Assembly: GCA_026023565.1 (NCBI GenBank)
Contig: JAPETS010000001.1
Coordinates: 806,001-870,000 of the forward strand
Length of the DNA: 64,000 nucleotides
Direction of reading: 5' to 3'
Origin: Cirrosporium novae-zelandiae
Taxonomy: Eukaryota
The notes below the pieces were generated by a model that saw only the letters and a program-made list of their open reading frames with translations, made no database searches and was not told the DNA's origin. Position 1 is the first letter of the stretch; the number at the start of each line of letters is the position of its first letter. Below are positions 387 to 48,193 of the stretch, one piece after another. The translations under genes and the position numbers were made by a program.

Positions 387-2849
387 TCAACAACTCAAAG
401 GGAGTTCGCTTATTTTAAATAACCTCAAGGAGGTATCCTCACTGGCAACTGCCAATTCACCGCTTTCATGCTGTTCCTGTGCTTTTTGTTCCTCCCCATC
501 TGACATCAATACTTGTCTTTCACAAGGCCTCCAGCATAAACTAGTAATAGTTCTTGAAAAGCTATATTTTGCACCAACCCGATATTGTGCTACTTTCTCA
601 AAGTTTTGGGGCACACTCAGCGCATAGATATCAAGCTCCCCAGATTCAAAGCCAACCGCGAGGTGTAAAGTCTGCCTTATAATACGCTGCATGAATGAGA
701 CCGCTGATACCCCTTCCGTTGTGGGTATACTTGTCTTCATGTTAAAATTGTCTCCCTCAGCTCCCCATATTTTTACAGCCTTTTCCCGACCAGCAGTTAC
801 AAAGATACAACCACACTCTTTTGGCGCCCAGTCACAGTCATGGATCATTCGAGTATGAGCCTTGGGGTTTGAACTCCGAAGACTATATTCAAGTGGTTTC
901 CCTTCGACTCGCTGGAAAACTGCCCATTTTCGATCACGTCCCACGCTCAATAATTGGGCATCATCTTCAGAGAAACAAAGGCTTGCAACTGTAAGTGAAT
1001 GAACTGTCAGTACTGGCTTAATTTCTTGCCAGTTCTCGGTGTTGTATAATCGAATGACAGCGTGGTCGATTGAACTTGCTTTACAGGCTGTGGCTACAAC
1101 TCTAAGATCATGACTTGCAGCAATGGCAGAGATCTCGTAACCATGACCATATAGCTTTTCGCATTCTGGCCATAGAGTATGCCTTGCGAGATCGTCCTCT
1201 AGAGGCGGGTGTTGAAGATCAGGGATAGAAGAAGAAGAAGAAGCGGAGGCGGGATTTATAGCATCTCTAGATTCTTCTGCTGTATCTTCAGTTTTATTTT
1301 CGTTTTGTTCCTCATTTTCCGTGGCCTTATTTGACAATCCAAGCACTGGCATACTTGCTGACTCGGGCATTATGCTCTCATCAATTTGTTTCACGCCGCA
1401 AAGCCGTTCCAGCACTTTTGCTATAGGCTTCGGCTCGTCAAAGACTCGAAGGAGCTTTTCATCTGCACCAGAAATGAACTGCCGACTACCAAGTGAAGCT
1501 ATGCAATTCAAATCGTAACCATGAATTTGTGGTCTCGAGAATTCATGCCAGGTAGTTTGGCCATTCCCTATCCATCGAGAATGAAGCCTGGTTGTCTGAT
1601 CAGAGCTGGTAGAAAGGAGATATTCGCCTTTGCTCGACCAAGTGATACCCGTTACTGCTCGTACATGGCCGCTGATACCATTGCGCTGTATCCATCGACC
1701 GGATCCTGTATCGTGGTCCCATAGCCTCCAACTGCCAGTTCGGCTCAGGGATGTTACAGTCTGACCGTTCGGTGACCAGAGGCCGATCCAGAACCCGCCT
1801 GTGCTTCCTGTGGCCGTCGTCGAACCTTTCTGGGCATTTATTTCGCCAAGCCGGGTATCACAGACCCAAATACCAGTATTAGATTTACTCCAGATCGCCA
1901 AAGAGTTATCAGCAGAAGTTGTAAGTAGTCGGAGCTGACCATCTTTAAACCGAGTCCATGCCGAGGTATGTATCCAATCCTCGTGCCCTATCAACAATGC
2001 CTCGAACGTAGCAGCATAGTTGACCTCGGCTACCTGGAACGACTGTAATTTGGCTTCCAATGGCTTAAGGGCCGTTTCTCCAGCCACAGGAGTATAAACT
2101 TTGACCGAGTGTGTAGTATTCCTAGACACTCTCCATAGGCGAATATATTTGTCCTGACTAGCCGAGGCCATGATAAGATCATCATGGGAGTTATCCTCCT
2201 GAGTAATTGCAAGCGAGTTGATCCAGCCTTCATGGCCTTCTAGTGTAGAACTCAGAGAAAATTCAGACTGGTTTTCTCCTATGTTTGAGGTATACAGTTG
2301 TATCCTTTTGTTCGTACCTGCTGCAGCTAGAACAGTAGGTACGGAATCAGGCTGTATGGATTTCTGTAGACTGTTTAGTGCAAGGGCCAGCGGTATAAAA
2401 CGTGGAGTTATGTTTATTTTTTGCACAAGATCGGCCTTAATTTCTGGAGATTGATGAAACTTCCATATAGATATTGTAGCATCAGCAGCACCGACAGCGA
2501 ATATGCTTGCTTGTGGTTCAACTGCAATGATATTTATAGATTTCCGGTGTTCAAGAACAGCCTTGCATGAAAAGTCCAAGGAAGAGATAGAGGAGGCCTG
2601 CCATATTCGTACGCATCGGTCTGCGGAGCCAGTAATGATGATAGGAAAATGAGGGAAAAACCTGACTGCCGTAACCTGATCGCTATGTCCTGAGAATAGA
2701 CGCCGTACACCTTGAGCTGTCAGTGGGTTCCAGAGAGCAACATTCTTATCAGCGCCGAAGGCAAGGAGACCTGAGTCCGCATCCCAATCAGCGGCTGCTG
2801 GGTTTCTGTTGCCGCCAATGCTGATATACTCCGATGCAACTGACACCAT
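387..2849 (-). CDS. ELP2: Elongator complex subunit 2 (WD40 double propeller), intronless
   Basis: 820-aa WD40 ORF with Elp2 motifs LEGHEGWI, ASASQDKYIRLW, EALLIGHEDW, WHEFSRPQIHGYD, TLWPECEKLYGHGYE. Confidence 0.96.
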   Translation of the reverse strand: MVSVASEYISIGGNRNPAAADWDADSGLLAFGADKNVALWNPLTAQGVRRLFSGHSDQVTAVRFFPHFPIIITGSADRCVRIWQASSISSLDFSCKAVLEHRKSINIIAVEPQASIFAVGAADATISIWKFHQSPEIKADLVQKINITPRFIPLALALNSLQKSIQPDSVPTVLAAAGTNKRIQLYTSNIGENQSEFSLSSTLEGHEGWINSLAITQEDNSHDDLIMASASQDKYIRLWRVSRNTTHSVKVYTPVAGETALKPLEAKLQSFQVAEVNYAATFEALLIGHEDWIHTSAWTRFKDGQLRLLTTSADNSLAIWSKSNTGIWVCDTRLGEINAQKGSTTATGSTGGFWIGLWSPNGQTVTSLSRTGSWRLWDHDTGSGRWIQRNGISGHVRAVTGITWSSKGEYLLSTSSDQTTRLHSRWIGNGQTTWHEFSRPQIHGYDLNCIASLGSRQFISGADEKLLRVFDEPKPIAKVLERLCGVKQIDESIMPESASMPVLGLSNKATENEEQNENKTEDTAEESRDAINPASASSSSSIPDLQHPPLEDDLARHTLWPECEKLYGHGYEISAIAASHDLRVVATACKASSIDHAVIRLYNTENWQEIKPVLTVHSLTVASLCFSEDDAQLLSVGRDRKWAVFQRVEGKPLEYSLRSSNPKAHTRMIHDCDWAPKECGCIFVTAGREKAVKIWGAEGDNFNMKTSIPTTEGVSAVSFMQRIIRQTLHLAVGFESGELDIYALSVPQNFEKVAQYRVGAKYSFSRTITSLCWRPCERQVLMSDGEEQKAQEQHESGELAVASEDTSLRLFKISELPLSC

Positions 2850-3099
2850 TGAGAATATTTATTTTAAAGTATTTTCCGCGACGAGAACATGACGGAGACT
2901 CTGACGTTCGTTAGTTAGATGAAAAAAAATTAAGCTTACACCTTATCGATAAGGCACAAATATCAGCGTGCACTGACCATCAAAATTTATTTGCATGTAC
3001 TGTACAGTACATGCTTTAGAAGCTATCGGTTTCCAACTTCATTAGGAACCCTTTATTCCGTATCAACATCTACTAATAAATACCTTGTCAAGATAAAAC

Positions 3100-6327: not shown

Positions 6328-7130
6328 CTTAATTCAAAGAAAGCACGGCCAGGATTTCCAACTAGTCACTATGGAAAAGACAGTAAACCTATGTTCAAAT
6401 AATCTAGAAATAGATGCGTGGTTGCCAAGTGCGGATATCGAAGGGGATTGATTGTGTCTGGTCCAGCCGGTCACAAGGGAAGACAGCAGCTTTGGAGGCT
6501 TACTACCAGATTGTTTGAGTTCAGGGAGGGTTAGGAGTGGAGATTTGTAGGGTCAAGAGTCAGCAGAATCAGTATTTGATACTGATGATCATTTCCACAT
6601 CTCTCCTTTCAGTTAAAAGAACTACATTATGTAGATTGACCCAGGGTTCATATTGAATTGCTTTTAAAAAGGCGCATGCCGTGGAACTTAAGAGCGCAAA
6701 AGCGCAAAAAGCGGGCATATCCTCGGGGATTAGGTCCAACCGGGGGGTTATCAATTACGTCATCAAGAATGTGCTTTGTGTGCATCGGGTTTCAAAAGTT
6801 TCTCCGGCTGAACAAACTTCTTCCGTCCTTTTTTCGGCTTCTTCCCTTCACACTCAACGACCGACACCTGGGACACCTTAGGCAAACCACTAAACTACTA
6901 CCTAATAAAATTTGAAGAGGATTGGGAACAAATGAGCTAAACAGCTTGTCAGAATTATTGAACCCCCATATACCCATCAACCTCCGGAGTTCAGCTCGAC
7001 TTCTCCTCTAACCCCCTCACCACTCCTCTCTCTTTAGAGCACCCCCCTACTTGATTGAGCCATTAAGCGTCCGCCATCCTCTTACAGACATTGTTGCTTT
7101 TTCGTCCCAATTCCCAGTCCCATTGCGATA

Positions 7131-36557: not shown

Positions 36558-36639
36558 TGCTCCCGACGGGACTCGAACCCGTGCCTCGAGCAGACCAGAT
36601 AAATGGGAAGCTCGAATTCTACCCCTGAACTACGGAAGC
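36558..36639 (-). tRNA. tRNA-Gly(CCC) with 11-nt canonical intron (36593-36603)
   Basis: GCTTCCG TA GTTC AGGGGTA GAAT T CGAGC TT CCC A [TTTATCTGGTC] T GCTCG AGGC ACGGG TTCGAGT CCCGT CGGGAGC A; all stems pair; T6 terminator (A6 at 36530-36535). Confidence 0.93.
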
Positions 36640-37948
36640 TACATTTATTGAATCATATGAACGTAATAGAAGTTTATGATCATTTGAACATTAGATGGTA
36701 AGCGAGGTCTACAGCAAAAGAACCAGTTGAAATTTTCCGAAAGATAGCAATTTATCAAGGTAGCTCTCTAGCCCTATTTTTTAGCCATATATCGTTATAG
36801 CTGTAAAAGTCATCCTACACTTTCAAAGGCTATTAAACCGAAATTTTAGTTTTCATATATGAATATTATCAACCATCATTACTACCAAAGCTGTGTTAAC
36901 TTCTACCAAGCCTTTCTTCTCTATAATTATATATACTCCATCTCTTTTCCCTATCTCTTAAGGCATGTGTTTTTTATCATGTGCCTTCTGTCTTTATATA
37001 ATCGATCGGGTTTAGCTAATCGGAACAGGACATGGCATATGATTTGTTAACTAGCTGGCGGGAATCACCATTGAAAGGAAGTAAATCAAAGATAGCTAAC
37101 ATCCTTATGAATGGCTGGCCAAAGCTTCTATCAAATGGCGCAGCCAATTTGTCTTGAGGAGAGCAGTCAACCACTAATTTTATCCGGCAGATGCTAGTCT
37201 AAATTTGCTACCGCAGAGTCCAGTTACCCACAATTGCTCGAGTAGAAACAGAAAAGTGCACAGACGCCATCGTTTGCATGATCTTCAGGATTAAATCGAA
37301 AGAGGTCAATGGGCTAATGCTCTTCACCGATGGCTATTCAGAGATTTCTCTCTCAAATATTCATTAACAATCCTGTTGAAACCTTTGGCTTCCAAGTCGA
37401 CTTAGCTAGGACTTTGTGTGGTCTCCAAGCATGCAGCTAGAGGGGTATAGAGCGCAGTTAAGAGAAAAGAAAAAGTACTGGCCTCCATATTAAAAACATT
37501 TTCCCTAAAATTGTTATATTTCTGCATGGGAGCATCAACAAAGTAACGATATTATCAGCTACTATAATAAGGTAACGGGAGATCTGAATCATCGTATTCT
37601 CTAACTTCTGAAATATTGAACTATGATATATCCTATCGGGTTCTACGTTGAAAAAGGTTGAAATCATGCCCACGTTGTATAAGAGAGCCCAAGAGGGTTG
37701 CTTCATCGTTTCACAAACCCCAAAGGATATTTGAAACATATCTTGTTCATGGGCTTGGGAATATATTTTATAATCCATACAAAAAGCAGACTTGCATGAG
37801 ATATTTAAGGAAATCCCAAGTGTCTAGACTATCCACTTTGTGTGAGGAAGAGGTCCTGGTGGTGGGCGTGGAGGCTTGAGACATAGAGCTCGTGAGCTCC
37901 TCTCAGGATGTGAGGTGCACTGGTAAGTCTTAGACCTCGTTCCTTATA

Positions 37949-38148
37949 TCCTAGACTGGTCACCAATGGCTATCGCTAGTAGGGGTGTTAATGTAGGGGG
38001 TCTGATTGACCCAATGACAAGATCTTGAGGCTCAATATGATTCAACAAAGAAGTTGATGCCTGAGTCTGCCTGAAAATAGTTATCTGACCTATCATAATC
38101 CTTACATAACATCCCTACTAGCGATAGCCATCGGTGGCCAGTCTAGGA
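37949..38148. mobile_element. MITE-like foldback element, about 200 bp, with about 49-bp terminal inverted repeats
   Basis: Left arm tcctagactggtcaccaatggctatcgctagtaggggtgttaatgtagg (37949-37997) versus reverse complement of right arm tcctagactggccaccgatggctatcgctagtagggatgttatgtaagg (38100-38148); non-coding interior. Confidence 0.7.
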
Positions 38149-39659
38149 GATTCTTTCGCAACTACATTTCCCAGCATACACAACTTCGAAGTGATTTATA
38201 TCTCTAGGTGGCTTGTATCTCTAGTGCGCCGTGGGACTTGATGATGATAATAATTCATTTTATTGTTCATATGTCACCTTCAGGTTATGGCGGACATACG
38301 CGTCGTGGGACTTAACATAGACAGAACTTGGCCATTTCCGTTTAGGAAGAGGTTACTGCATAAAATGCCAGAAACCAAGTAGAATTTATAGTTTTAATTG
38401 AACCAAAATAATCAAACAGCATATACTTCCAAACTTCGGCGGACTACTTAAGCATGACAAATAGCATACGACTCTCCTATTTACAGATGCACAACTCAGT
38501 AGGCTTACCGACTACGTTGGAGATACCGAACCACCCTCAAAAGCCATCGCTTGGGAGAGTACGGCAGAAACATTAAAAGTATAAAGGCTACAACAGGTGC
38601 TTTAGGCTTATGGTTTCTGACACTGATTTATTCATCGTTCCACGTTTTCCAACTCTGGAAACTTGAGTTCTTTTAGCAATGTGGGGTCAAATATTGTAGT
38701 TTCTTTTTACAAAGGTTAGACGGACTTGACTAGGGGTGCAATCATATAAATTATAAAGACCCAAACAACGAAATCTTTTCAGACAAGCTAAAGTAGGAAT
38801 GTGATGGTATTACGAAAAACTGAACTCTATTTTATCAAACTATGGCAAAAGCCCCTCCATCTTTCTGTGGGGGTATCTACGAACTAAAGACATATGTCCA
38901 GATCGGAGCCTTCCTCTGCCTTCCCAGTTAAGATCTGGTTTACCTGCTTTGCCACGGGATGCAGAGGATTTGAACAACTGGATCCATGAAACTAAGGAGC
39001 TATTTTACAATGTCGCACATAACATGCTGTTTTGTAGCCGGGAGGTTTAGTAGAAAGGAGAAGGCTTGAAAGAAGGATATGGTTTGGAAGAAGGAGGAGG
39101 TTTGTAACAAGAAGAAGGCAAAATCTAGGTTGATCGGCATTTCATGGCTGGCTGATCTAGTTGCTTCAAAGAAGGCGATGCGATACTGTAAGACCGTACA
39201 GGTAGCTATAAACTGTAGAGAGAGGTGTGCCATTTTTCAACGTTAAACCATTCATATTTTCATCCTTTCTTGCTAAAAGGGCTGGTAAAAGTATTGATTC
39301 TATTGGCATTGACGTCCCTAGCGCATGAAACGGGGCTGAGGAAACATAAATATCAAGAAAATGACTATTTGGTGTTTTGCTTGTCACAGCCTATCCGGTT
39401 TCACGCTTCCTCAATAAAATAAACATACTAATCTGGTAGCACATACCATTGGTCTCAATTCTTATTGTAGATAGTGATTGAAACATTTCCCATAAGTTCC
39501 TTGTATGGTATACTCCTCTCCTATTCAAAATGTACTGGACCTCTTAAAAAGACCAATATCTAGTGCTCTATCAGTCATACCCATTTGTAGGTATTCATCA
39601 CATATCTCAAATCCTAAAAGTATATTTCACAATATCCTCTTGTAATGTCATTGAAGTCG

Positions 39660-39821
39660 GGGGGATTGGCGCAATGGTAGCGCGTGGTAAGGGCATTGAA
39701 AAAAATACAAAATCCCGATTCACCGTTTCTAACAAATAACAGGCTCTCCTACTTTCGCTAGTTAATAGCAGAAAATATATTGGATAAGCCAAGGCTGTGG
39801 GTTCGAGTCCCATGTTCCTCG
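39660..39821 (+). tRNA. tRNA-Arg(CCU) interrupted by a 56-nt spliceosomal-type intron (39687-39742) in the anticodon stem and a 34-nt canonical intron (39752-39785)
   Basis: Mature 72 nt: GGGGGAT TG GCGC AATGGTA GCGC G TG|GCT CT CCT A|A AGCCA AGGCT GTGGG TTCGAGT CCCAT GTTCCTC G; anticodon stem TGGCT/AGCCA forms only after GT-AG removal; acceptor stem has three G.U pairs. Confidence 0.85.
39687..39742 (+). other. Spliceosomal-type (U2) intron inside tRNA-Arg(CCU), between bases 28 and 29
   Basis: Donor GTAAGG, branch point TTCTAAC (39727-39733), acceptor AACAG; size matches the window's mRNA introns. Confidence 0.82.
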
Positions 39822-39832
39822 GTTCATAATAA

Positions 39833-39838
39833 TTTTTT
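39833..39838 (+). terminator. Pol III terminator (T6) of tRNA-Arg
   Basis: TTTTTT starting 12 nt after the discriminator base. Confidence 0.7.
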
Positions 39839-40148
39839 GTGGGGTGGAGACGGAAATAGGAACTAGGGATTGGATAGATGGCGGAGAATAATATATCTAT
39901 ATCATTCCTTCATGCAGGTGGCAATCCTGACGAGTATGAGATAGGGAAGCCAATTGAAATAGAGATGGCTGACATTATTCACCGAATAATTAAGGCAAAG
40001 ATAAAAAACAAAGAAGAAAAACAATGCAATCGTGAAAGGATGAACAGTATTCATTAGCAATATATGCATCTATACACCATTAGCATCAAGGAACAATCTA
40101 TCCCTCCCAATACCTGCTAGAGTCCCACTTTTCTATTATGAAACACAA

Positions 40149-42373: not shown

Positions 42374-43542
42374 ATGTCAGGCGCAAGGCACTGGTACGCT
42401 CTTTACACCCCCAATTCCAGAATGTTATCACTTAAATCAGTATTTTTAGGGAACAAGACAAGGAAGCAACCGTCTATATCGGCAACCTTGATGAACGAGT
42501 AACAGATAGCCTGGTATGGGAATTGATGCTTCAAGCCGGCCGAATCGTCAACGTCCATCTACCAAAAGACCGCGTCACACAAACCCATCAAGGTTATGGT
42601 TTTGTTGAGTTCATCAGTGAAGAAGATGCTGAGTATGCAGCTCGAATTATGAACCAAGTGAGGTTGTACGGAAAGCCAATCAGGGTGAACAAGGCAAGCG
42701 CGGATAAGCAGAAGACAGTGGAGGTGGGAGCAGAGTTGTTTATTGGGAATTTGGACCCGATGGTTACGGAACAGACACTCTATGATACATTTAGTCGGTT
42801 TGGGAGTCTAGTTTCTGCGCCAAAGGTATTTAATTATAAACCTTCAACGATTGGAAATAGGCAGACAGCTAACACGAATAAGATTGCAAGAGACGACGCG
42901 AATCTATCCAAGGGTTATGGCTTTGTATCTTACTCGAACTTCGAAGCTTCCGACGACGCTATCGCAAACATGAATGGGCAATACTTGATGAACAAAGAAA
43001 TATCAGTCCAGTACGCCTACAAGAAAGACGGAAAAGGAGAACGACACGGTGATGAAGCAGAAAGAATGTTGGCAGCGCAGGCAAGAAAACATAATGTTGC
43101 ACCAGCACCACAAATCGCTCCACCACTCACTGCAGCACCTCCACCTATGGCACCAACGCCCATGCTCGATGGTAATGTGGCTTCGGCAATGGCTACACCT
43201 CCAGCAGGTTTCATGAATGGGAGACCCCCAAATTTTCAGAACGTACCTCCACCACCACAACGGCCGACTGGGCCACCAACGTCCACTCTGGCAGCACCAC
43301 CATCAGGTCTGCCCGCAAGACCCCCCCCTTCACAGGCTGGATATGGAGGACCCCAGGGGTTTATACCTCCTGGATTTAATGCGCCACCACCCGCTGGATT
43401 TCCTCCTTCTACCGTGCCTTCAAACGGAATGGCACCACCGCCTGGATTCGGACCGCCGCCTGGATTTGCGGCCCCCCCTGGTGGTGTTCCACCAGGGCTA
43501 CCACCTGGGTTTCAGCCACAGGCGTATGGGAGGACGAGATGA
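42374..43542 (+). CDS. HSH49: Splicing factor 3B subunit 4 (Hsh49/SAP49), two RRMs plus Pro-rich tail, 2 introns
   Basis: [81 protein letters not shown]. Confidence 0.96.
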
Positions 43543-47425: not shown

Positions 47426-48024
47426 TTTGATAAGTATAAGATGAAGGGAGAAGGTTTTTAAGAATAAAGAGTAGAAAACGGAGATTGAGTGGAGATGAGA
47501 GAGAAAGAAGAGAGATGAAGAACTTTACGAGAGAAGGAAATTGGGCGGAGGGGATGGGCGAGATCCTAATAGTCTGTAAATACTCCTACCTTACGATTAC
47601 CCCTCTACGTCAGCTCTCCTAACCCCGTGCACCTTGGAAGTCTCGAACCATAATATCAACATTTTCATCCCCATTAATTCAAGAACCACCACAAAATCGC
47701 GGGGTTTGTTTACTGGGACTTAAATGGGTCCATTTCCCCGGATGTAACTAAAATCTAGAATAAAATAGGCTTGATATCAACTAGATGCGTTCGTTGGAGA
47801 GAAAGCTTCACGAGCCAGCGATTAATTTTCGTGAGCTTCCGATTCGTACTCGCCAGTTTTAATGGTAAGGAACCTGTATTCTGTGTATTTGAAGCTATCC
47901 TCTCCTCAGAATCATCTCCGCTCTTCCGTCACCGGATATTCTAATATCCACCCCATTCATCATTGGTCATCCGATACCACGGCCAGTATATCCCAAACAT
48001 GTGAGACAGCACTCCAATAAAGAG

Positions 48025-48180
48025 GCTCCTATAGCTCAGTTGGTAGAGCGCAGCACTAGTACTACCAAAGTACTTCACCGGAGTAGCAATGCTGAGGTCT
48101 TCAGGTAAGAGTTTCTCGCCTCTTCATAGGTTTATTCAACCTTCTAACATTTGCAATTAGTTCAAATCTGAATGGGAGCA
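48025..48180 (+). tRNA. tRNA-Thr(AGU) with a 27-nt canonical intron (48062-48088) and a 56-nt spliceosomal-type intron (48105-48160) between G53 and T54
   Basis: Mature 73 nt: GCTCCTA TA GCTC AGTTGGTA GAGC G CAGCA CT AGT A|A TGCTG AGGTC TTCAG|TTCAAAT CTGAA TGGGAGC A; T-stem TTCAG/CTGAA with a 7-nt loop forms exactly after GT-AG removal. Confidence 0.9.
48105..48160 (+). other. Spliceosomal-type (U2) intron inside tRNA-Thr(AGU)
   Basis: CAG|GTAAGA donor, TTCTAAC branch point (48142-48148), TTAG acceptor. Confidence 0.87.
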
Positions 48181-48188
48181 TTCAATTA

Positions 48189-48193
48189 TTTTT
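48189..48193 (+). terminator. Pol III terminator (T5) of tRNA-Thr
   Basis: TTTTT starting 9 nt after the discriminator base. Confidence 0.65.

Follow-up and report, generated by a model that had tools for sequence, protein, structure and literature searches.

Candidate spliceosomal introns at non-canonical positions in tRNA genes of an ascomycete

Background

Can a nuclear tRNA gene harbor, besides its canonical intron, a second intron of the type that the spliceosome removes from pre-mRNAs? This question is raised by a locus at positions 39660-39821 (+ strand) of a 64-kb stretch of DNA (hereafter the window, by which we mean the whole stretch at its full length), where a GT-AG segment lies inside the anticodon stem of what otherwise reads as a tRNA-Arg(CCU) gene. 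The presence of mRNA-type introns in non-coding RNA genes is already known. [quoted passage not shown] Such introns have also been described in fungal U6, U2, U5, U1, U3 and rRNA genes (PMC5855946, PMC5832005), and the spliceosomal introns of ascomycete nuclear rRNA genes are a further case (Bhattacharya et al. 2000, cited in PMC6652019, PMC5855946). However, tRNA is absent from the list of non-coding RNAs hosting spliceosomal introns in a 2018 review (PMC5855946), and textbooks and recent reviews place spliceosomal and tRNA introns in classes that are unrelated and have different substrates (PMC12530127). Among the papers listed in our searches of the open full-text literature, none describes spliceosomal introns in tRNA genes.

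Results and discussion

The tRNA genes of the window

By its sequence, the window belongs to the nuclear genome of an ascomycete. One of its open frames, of 823 aa at 387-2858 (-), was identified as Elongator protein 2, whose nearest clusters are from ascomycetes, and open frames of the window are interrupted by short GT...CTRAY...AG introns. A gene at 42436-43542 (+) appears to encode a two-RRM, proline-rich protein resembling the splicing factor SF3b4/Hsh49; this gene and that of Elongator protein 2 are probably coincidental neighbors.

The default tRNA finder returned no tRNA in the whole window, and Rfam at the gathering score returned two, namely, a tRNA-Gly(CCC) with 55.3 bits and a 156-nt match at 48025-48180 with 35.6 bits. 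The Rfam tRNA model (RF00005) has no match to the Arg gene, either at the gathering score or at E<=10, and none at E<=10 to its two relatives L001 and L002 described below, as is expected since these genes are split. A canonical intron is present in all three tRNA genes of the window, and two of them carry an additional, ectopic insert. The third is the following:

36558-36639 (-): tRNA-Gly(CCC) gene with only an 11-nt canonical intron, the sole tRNA gene of the window lacking an ectopic intron

No further candidate in the window emerged from 9,695 single GT..AG deletions. When we scanned the window for T-arm hairpins, four of the 11 hairpins found were followed by a T-run, corresponding to the three known genes and to a site at 6791, where none of the tools calls a tRNA. 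A U6-like match at 39975-40074, just downstream of the Arg gene, was judged to be a chance match (14.1 bits, E 1.3).

Two putative introns of different types in the tRNA-Arg(CCU) gene

Our analysis supports the reading of 39660-39821 (+) as a tRNA-Arg(CCU) gene that would contain a canonical intron at 37/38 and a spliceosomal-type intron at 28/29, with the following parts:

39660-39686 (+): exon 1, positions 1-28 (acceptor 5' strand, A box, D arm and two anticodon-stem bases)
39660-39666 (+): acceptor 5' strand, by direct reading
39667-39677 (+): A box, by direct reading
ending at 39684 (+): D arm, by direct reading
39685-39686 (+): anticodon-stem bases 1-2 (TG), by direct reading
39687-39742 (+): 56-nt spliceosomal-type intron at position 28/29, with a GTAAGG start, TTCTAAC and a CAG end
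39743-39751 (+): 9-nt middle exon (last three bases of the stem 5' strand, C32, U33, anticodon CCT, A37)
39752-39785 (+): 34-nt canonical intron at site 37/38, with the G at -3 pairing with C32
39786-39821 (+): exon 3 (A38, anticodon stem 3' strand, variable loop, T arm, acceptor 3' strand, G73)
39800-39810 (+): perfect B box, by direct reading
39833-39838 (+): T6 run resembling a Pol III terminator, 12 nt 3' of the gene

The original prediction, which placed a 56-nt GT-AG segment inside the anticodon stem, matches the DNA base for base at 39687-39742, and ARAGORN agrees on the spliced DNA: removing this segment in silico yielded an Arg(CCT) call with a canonical i(37,34) intron and five Watson-Crick pairs in the anticodon stem. 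The gene ends given by ARAGORN with introns allowed are the same as those of the direct reading (39660-39821), by which the branch A, lying within TTCTAAC, is 10 nt from the 3' end of the 28/29 insert. The other elements of that prediction, i.e., a second, canonical intron of 34 nt after A37 with the C32:G(-3) pair kept, and a B box with a T6 terminator, are also present at 39752-39785, 39800-39810 and 39833-39838, respectively. The predicted tRNA-Arg(CCU) identity was recovered as well, since the CCT loop is complete at 39743-39751 and Arg(CCT) is what ARAGORN calls after in silico splicing.

A tRNA-Thr(AGU) gene with an insert in the T arm

A second gene with an ectopic intron, which was not part of the original prediction, is the tRNA-Thr(AGU) gene at 48025-48180 (+):

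48025-48061 (+): exon 1, positions 1-37
48062-48088 (+): 27-nt canonical intron at 37/38, with the G at -3 opposite C32
48089-48104 (+): exon 2 (A38, anticodon stem 3' strand, variable loop, T-stem 5' strand to position 53)
48105-48160 (+): 56-nt spliceosomal-type intron exactly at 53/54, with GTAAGA, TTCTAAC 13 nt from the end, and TAG
48161-48180 (+): exon 3 (T loop, T-stem 3' strand, acceptor 3' strand, A73)
48189-48193 (+): T5 run 3' of the gene, by direct reading

The Rfam alignment of 48025-48180 shows a long insertion ahead of the T loop. When the 56-nt segment is removed in silico, the T stem is fully paired and the T loop is normal. The intron ends in the same two bases as the upstream exon, and this keeps the B box whole at the DNA level. 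ARAGORN labeled the spliced gene as Ala(AGC), which we rejected, as this label needs the other intron to be at 32/33, while the canonical 37/38 placement gives AGT. Moreover, alanine tRNAs have a G:U pair at 3:70, whereas this pair is U:A here. A pattern search for relatives with a 53/54 insert gave no match in the genome-contig and viral-contig collections.

Two other features were seen in the flanks. About 50 nt upstream of the Thr gene, at 47929-47975 (+), there is a match to the histone 3' stem-loop family that reaches 20.5 bits (E 0.0032 in a 401-nt search) and thus stays below the family's gathering score of 34. In addition, a TATA-like, GTATA-containing motif can be seen by eye at ~39616-39626 and ~47981-47991, about 38-40 nt upstream of the Arg and Thr genes, respectively.

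Related tRNA-Arg(CCU) genes in metagenome contigs

We searched metagenome contigs with a pattern in which 14 exon 1 bases and the 9-base middle exon were fixed, with 40-70 bases of any content between them. This search returned two loci, L001 (on a 73.6-kb record) and L002, both of which are Arg(CCU) genes with an insert at 28/29; the same pattern had no match in the genome-contig and viral-contig collections. The inserts are:

L001, insert at 28/29: 56 nt, GTATGT, CTAAC 13 nt from the 3' end, AAG
L002, insert at 28/29: 55 nt, GTCAGT, CTAAC 12 nt from the 3' end, AAG
L002, locus coordinates 736-688 (-): insert at 4/5 in the acceptor stem, 49 nt, GTACGT, TTCTAAC 11 nt from the end, CAG

The acceptor stem of L002 seems to be broken until four G residues located 49 nt upstream are joined to it. 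With both units removed, L002 forms a perfect cloverleaf whose acceptor strand is that of the window gene, whereas removal of only one leaves a distorted stem. A GTATA-containing, TATA-like motif is visible by eye ~70 nt upstream of this gene.

The insert bodies and canonical introns of L001 and L002 do not align with those of the window gene, and no synteny with the window was found within 600 nt on either side of the two loci. Since the flanks are thus unrelated, the orthology of L001 and L002 with the window gene rests on the tRNA alone. However, while the intron bodies have diverged, the signals at 28/29 (GT, G at +5, CTAAC and AG) are kept in all three genes.

Splice signals of the five inserts

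The five inserts (49-56 nt in length) share a set of signals. GT and a G at +5 are found in each of them (GTAAGG, GTAAGA, GTATGT, GTCAGT and GTACGT), as is an exact CTAAC, with the branch A located 10, 13, 13, 11 and 12 nt from the end (range 10-13). All five end in AG, three as CAG, TAG and CAG, and two, those of L001 and L002 at 28/29, as AAG; the latter is a departure from the more usual YAG and counts against a spliceosomal reading. Removal of exactly the GT...AG segment rebuilt a clean cloverleaf in every case (the inserts of Arg, Thr and L001, and both of L002). For comparison, we collected the introns that join open reading frames in the window (seven loci, defined by open frames rather than by homology or RNA), which are 49-74 nt long, start with GTRNGN, and have CTRAY 9-21 nt from the end. 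The Arg insert matches these coding introns in its length and 5' site as well as in the motif and distance of its branch site, and all five inserts are within the range that the coding introns span. The ectopic inserts of the window, at 56 nt, are also longer than its three canonical introns (11-34 nt), and the ectopic sites are 4/5, 28/29 and 53/54, the canonical 37/38 position being occupied only by the other intron of each gene.

To see how often such a combination occurs, we counted segments with GT, G at +5, CTAAC 7-21 nt from the end and AG over the whole window on both strands, and found 26 among 2,046,320 segments of 45-60 nt, a count that includes real coding introns. The occurrence of five such inserts at structure-restoring positions by chance is excluded, even with two to three equivalent cut registers per site. 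In a deletion control covering all 256 pairs of boundary dinucleotides (2,710,827 deletions), tRNA calls were obtained only at the three tRNA loci, and the 39 rows classed as "other" also have coordinates within these loci; this control cannot rank registers or single out GT-AG within a locus, as ARAGORN is permissive there. Therefore, the case for GT-AG rests on the signal count and on strict readings of the structure.

We considered the avoidance of T-runs in the ectopic introns as a possible signature of Pol III transcription. However, this is uninformative, as T5 is also absent from 20 coding-type introns, while 7.8% of random 56-mers contain it. We found no other introner-type copies of the inserts in the 64-kb window, and the Arg and Thr inserts resemble each other only in their signals. 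Taken together, the 5' site, branch motif, 3' site and length support the assignment of the ectopic inserts to the U2-type GT-AG class of putative spliceosomal introns.

Conservation of the tRNA structure

The in silico mature Arg sequences of the window gene, L001 and L002 are 72 nt each, and all 63 stem cells (63/63) are paired. They vary at 5 of the 72 positions, four of which constitute two compensatory pairs, 3:70 (G:C to A:T) and 50:64 (T:A to A:T), and the remaining one is located in the variable loop. All three genes retain the C32:G(-3) pair along with the B box and a T5-T6 run. The original prediction had cautioned that three G.U pairs in the acceptor stem and one in the T-stem might reflect partial decay. 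These pairs do exist, but the same ones are found in both relatives; being identical in the three Arg genes, they are a family trait rather than decay. The Arg genes thus look as if they have been selected as tRNAs, with a pattern that resembles purifying selection on a working tRNA; if so, the inserts must be removed accurately.

The sequence is confirmed by contigs of run X1, from which the DNA of the window probably comes. One 7,840-nt contig covers 38113-45952 without a difference from the window, and none of the contigs of this run joins across the Arg introns. In runs X2 and X3, which are from other organisms of the same study, Arg(CCU)- or Arg(UCU)-like genes lack the stem intron and have a short canonical intron or none, so the stem intron is lineage-limited. 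Contigs of run X1 end or overlap inside the Gly (36604-36630) and Thr (48033-48052) genes, and not inside the Arg gene, which suggests that parts of the Gly and Thr genes are common to paralogues and that the Arg gene is not. Such observations hint weakly that a near-identical paralogue of the Arg gene is lacking, which contigs cannot prove. The region at ~37945-38300 is a repeat, with a mean word depth of ~12,500 in the contigs of run X1 against ~362 around it, and with many loose ends on both sides.

A possible order of processing

Judging from the genes, we consider it likely that nuclear tRNA genes in a lineage of ascomycetes gained true spliceosomal introns (U2-type, GT-AG) at non-canonical positions and are functional. 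Transcription would most likely be by Pol III, given that the genes preserve both boxes (A and B) as well as a T5-T6 run. The spliceosome would then recognize the 5' site, CTAAC and AG, and excise the ectopic intron inside the nucleus, much as happens with U6 of S. pombe. The anticodon stem or T arm, and then the cloverleaf, could form only after the ectopic intron is gone. Subsequently, the tRNA splicing endonuclease and ligase would remove the 37/38 intron, presumably together with end processing and CCA addition. The eukaryotic tRNA endonuclease measures its cut sites from the folded body, and the spliceosome would have to act first because the anticodon stem or T arm cannot form with the ectopic intron in place. 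In this scheme, the supply of Arg(CCU) and Thr(AGU) would depend on two unrelated splicing machineries acting in order.

Alternative explanations

ARAGORN, when run with -i so that a single intron is allowed, reads the Arg locus as a tRNA-Ser(GGA) with one 90-nt intron at 31/32, a call that arises since the program models one intron only. We see virtually no chance that this is right, as the model has an A:A mismatch in the anticodon stem, U37, and an intron at a non-canonical site, lacks the long variable arm that serine tRNAs have, and takes no account of the CCT anticodon loop, which is complete at 39743-39751 and has the same sequence in L001 and L002. A different possibility is that the tRNA splicing endonuclease removes the inserts as non-canonical tRNA introns by way of a bulge-helix-bulge fold, their GT-AG appearance being incidental; sites such as 29/30 and 53/54 are indeed described for non-canonical introns of archaea, and some algae have non-canonical introns as well (PMC4090602). 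To evaluate this, we coded the fold in a script of our own, with both junctions in 3-nt bulges, a 4-bp helix between them and flanking helices. None of the five inserts forms the helix-bulge-helix-bulge-helix arrangement around its junctions (random site pairs, 0.75%), and the 4-bp central helix alone appears in only one of the five, against 21% of random site pairs. Moreover, in the three Arg genes the exon partner is constant but the introns begin differently, and the features that are kept, namely, GT, G at +5, CTAAC at 10-13 nt and AG, are meaningless to the tRNA endonuclease. This explanation is therefore very improbable.

The genes might instead be dead or dying, with intron- or introner-like elements having settled in redundant copies while intact paralogues supply the cell. 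Eukaryotic tRNA genes with insertions in their arms are usually taken as pseudogenes (PMC4090602), and the Arg gene is invisible to the Rfam tRNA model. Yet the same site is filled in three genes whose introns are beyond alignment and whose exons differ at only five of 72 positions, four of them compensatory; the splice signals, C32:G(-3), B box and terminator are all kept; and the inserts are not repeats within the window. The failure of any X1 contig to join across the introns points weakly in the same direction, as the same comparison detected intron-free relatives in X2 and X3. We hence regard decay as quite improbable. It is also conceivable, though unlikely, that the introns are the same and that the precursors are made by RNA polymerase II (Pol II), alone or in a longer non-coding transcript, in which case they would be spliced co-transcriptionally like an mRNA, the tRNA would be cut out by RNase P and RNase Z, and the A and B boxes and T-run would be relics or have another role. 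Efficient splicing is normally coupled to Pol II, and Pol III transcripts are poor splicing substrates in general. Furthermore, L002 has its 4/5 intron upstream of the A box, with a first exon of 4 nt and ~57 nt between base 1 and the A box; as the usual Pol III start is measured from the A box, the start would, by this rule, fall inside the intron and exon 1 would be lost, which is an argument against the Pol III pathway. On the other hand, all five tRNA genes (the three of the window, L001 and L002) keep good A and B boxes and a T5-T6 run within ~25 nt of the 3' end, and the last bases of the Thr intron preserve the B box in the DNA. U6 of S. pombe, moreover, is a Pol III product that can be spliced (PMC5855946). 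We thus retain working tRNA genes with spliceosomal introns, most likely transcribed by Pol III, as the preferred reading.

Comparison with known systems

With fungal U6, these tRNA genes share a short non-coding RNA as host, Pol III promoter elements, and canonical 5', branch and 3' sites in introns that are otherwise unconserved, vary in position and can be several per gene. However, as the host is a tRNA, the explanation of U6 introns by reverse splicing next to the active site is inapplicable, and the tRNA also carries an endonuclease-type intron. The introns of ascomycete rRNA and of fungal U3, U1, U2 and U5 are likewise lineage-limited GT-AG introns with fungal branch motifs in abundant structural hosts other than mRNA, although rRNA is made by Pol I and is a host of far greater size.

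In Cyanidioschyzon merolae, nucleomorphs and archaea, tRNA genes are also split at the acceptor stem, the anticodon stem and 53/54, can have as many as three introns each, and escape standard finders (PMC4090602, PMC3978253). Their introns are of the bulge-helix-bulge type and are substrates of the tRNA endonuclease, with many of them being very short, whereas here that fold is formed by none of the five inserts and the spliceosomal signals are conserved. The canonical eukaryotic tRNA intron (37/38, C32:G(-3)) is present in each gene too, while the ectopic introns are located elsewhere, are longer (in the window), and contain splice and branch motifs. What would be new here is that tRNAs form a class of hosts, and that a single 72-nt RNA requires two splicing systems.

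Implications

On balance, we lean towards a broader reading, in which the tRNA genes of an ascomycete lineage have been colonized by spliceosomal introns at a large scale, so that part of its tRNA pool would be made only via the spliceosome; the gene sequences pointing to it are two of the three tRNA genes of the window, at least three positions, and up to two such introns per gene beyond the normal one. If this is true, the rare tRNA that decodes AGG would be among the tRNAs made only via the spliceosome, the introns would constitute a third class of eukaryotic tRNA intron, and the genes would be an example from nature in which the spliceosome routinely processes Pol III transcripts. The standard tRNA annotation of such genomes would then be systematically incomplete: covariance-model finders would be shown to miss such genes silently, and some of the "missing isoacceptors" of fungi may be annotation artefacts. 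The finding would also bear on the origin of introns, for example, by reverse splicing into abundant RNAs, and it would provide a natural system in which the spliceosome acts on very short, uncapped and highly structured Pol III transcripts, or else one in which tRNAs are made by Pol II. Finally, a tRNA that needs both machineries would tie the translation capacity of the cell directly to the activity of its spliceosome.
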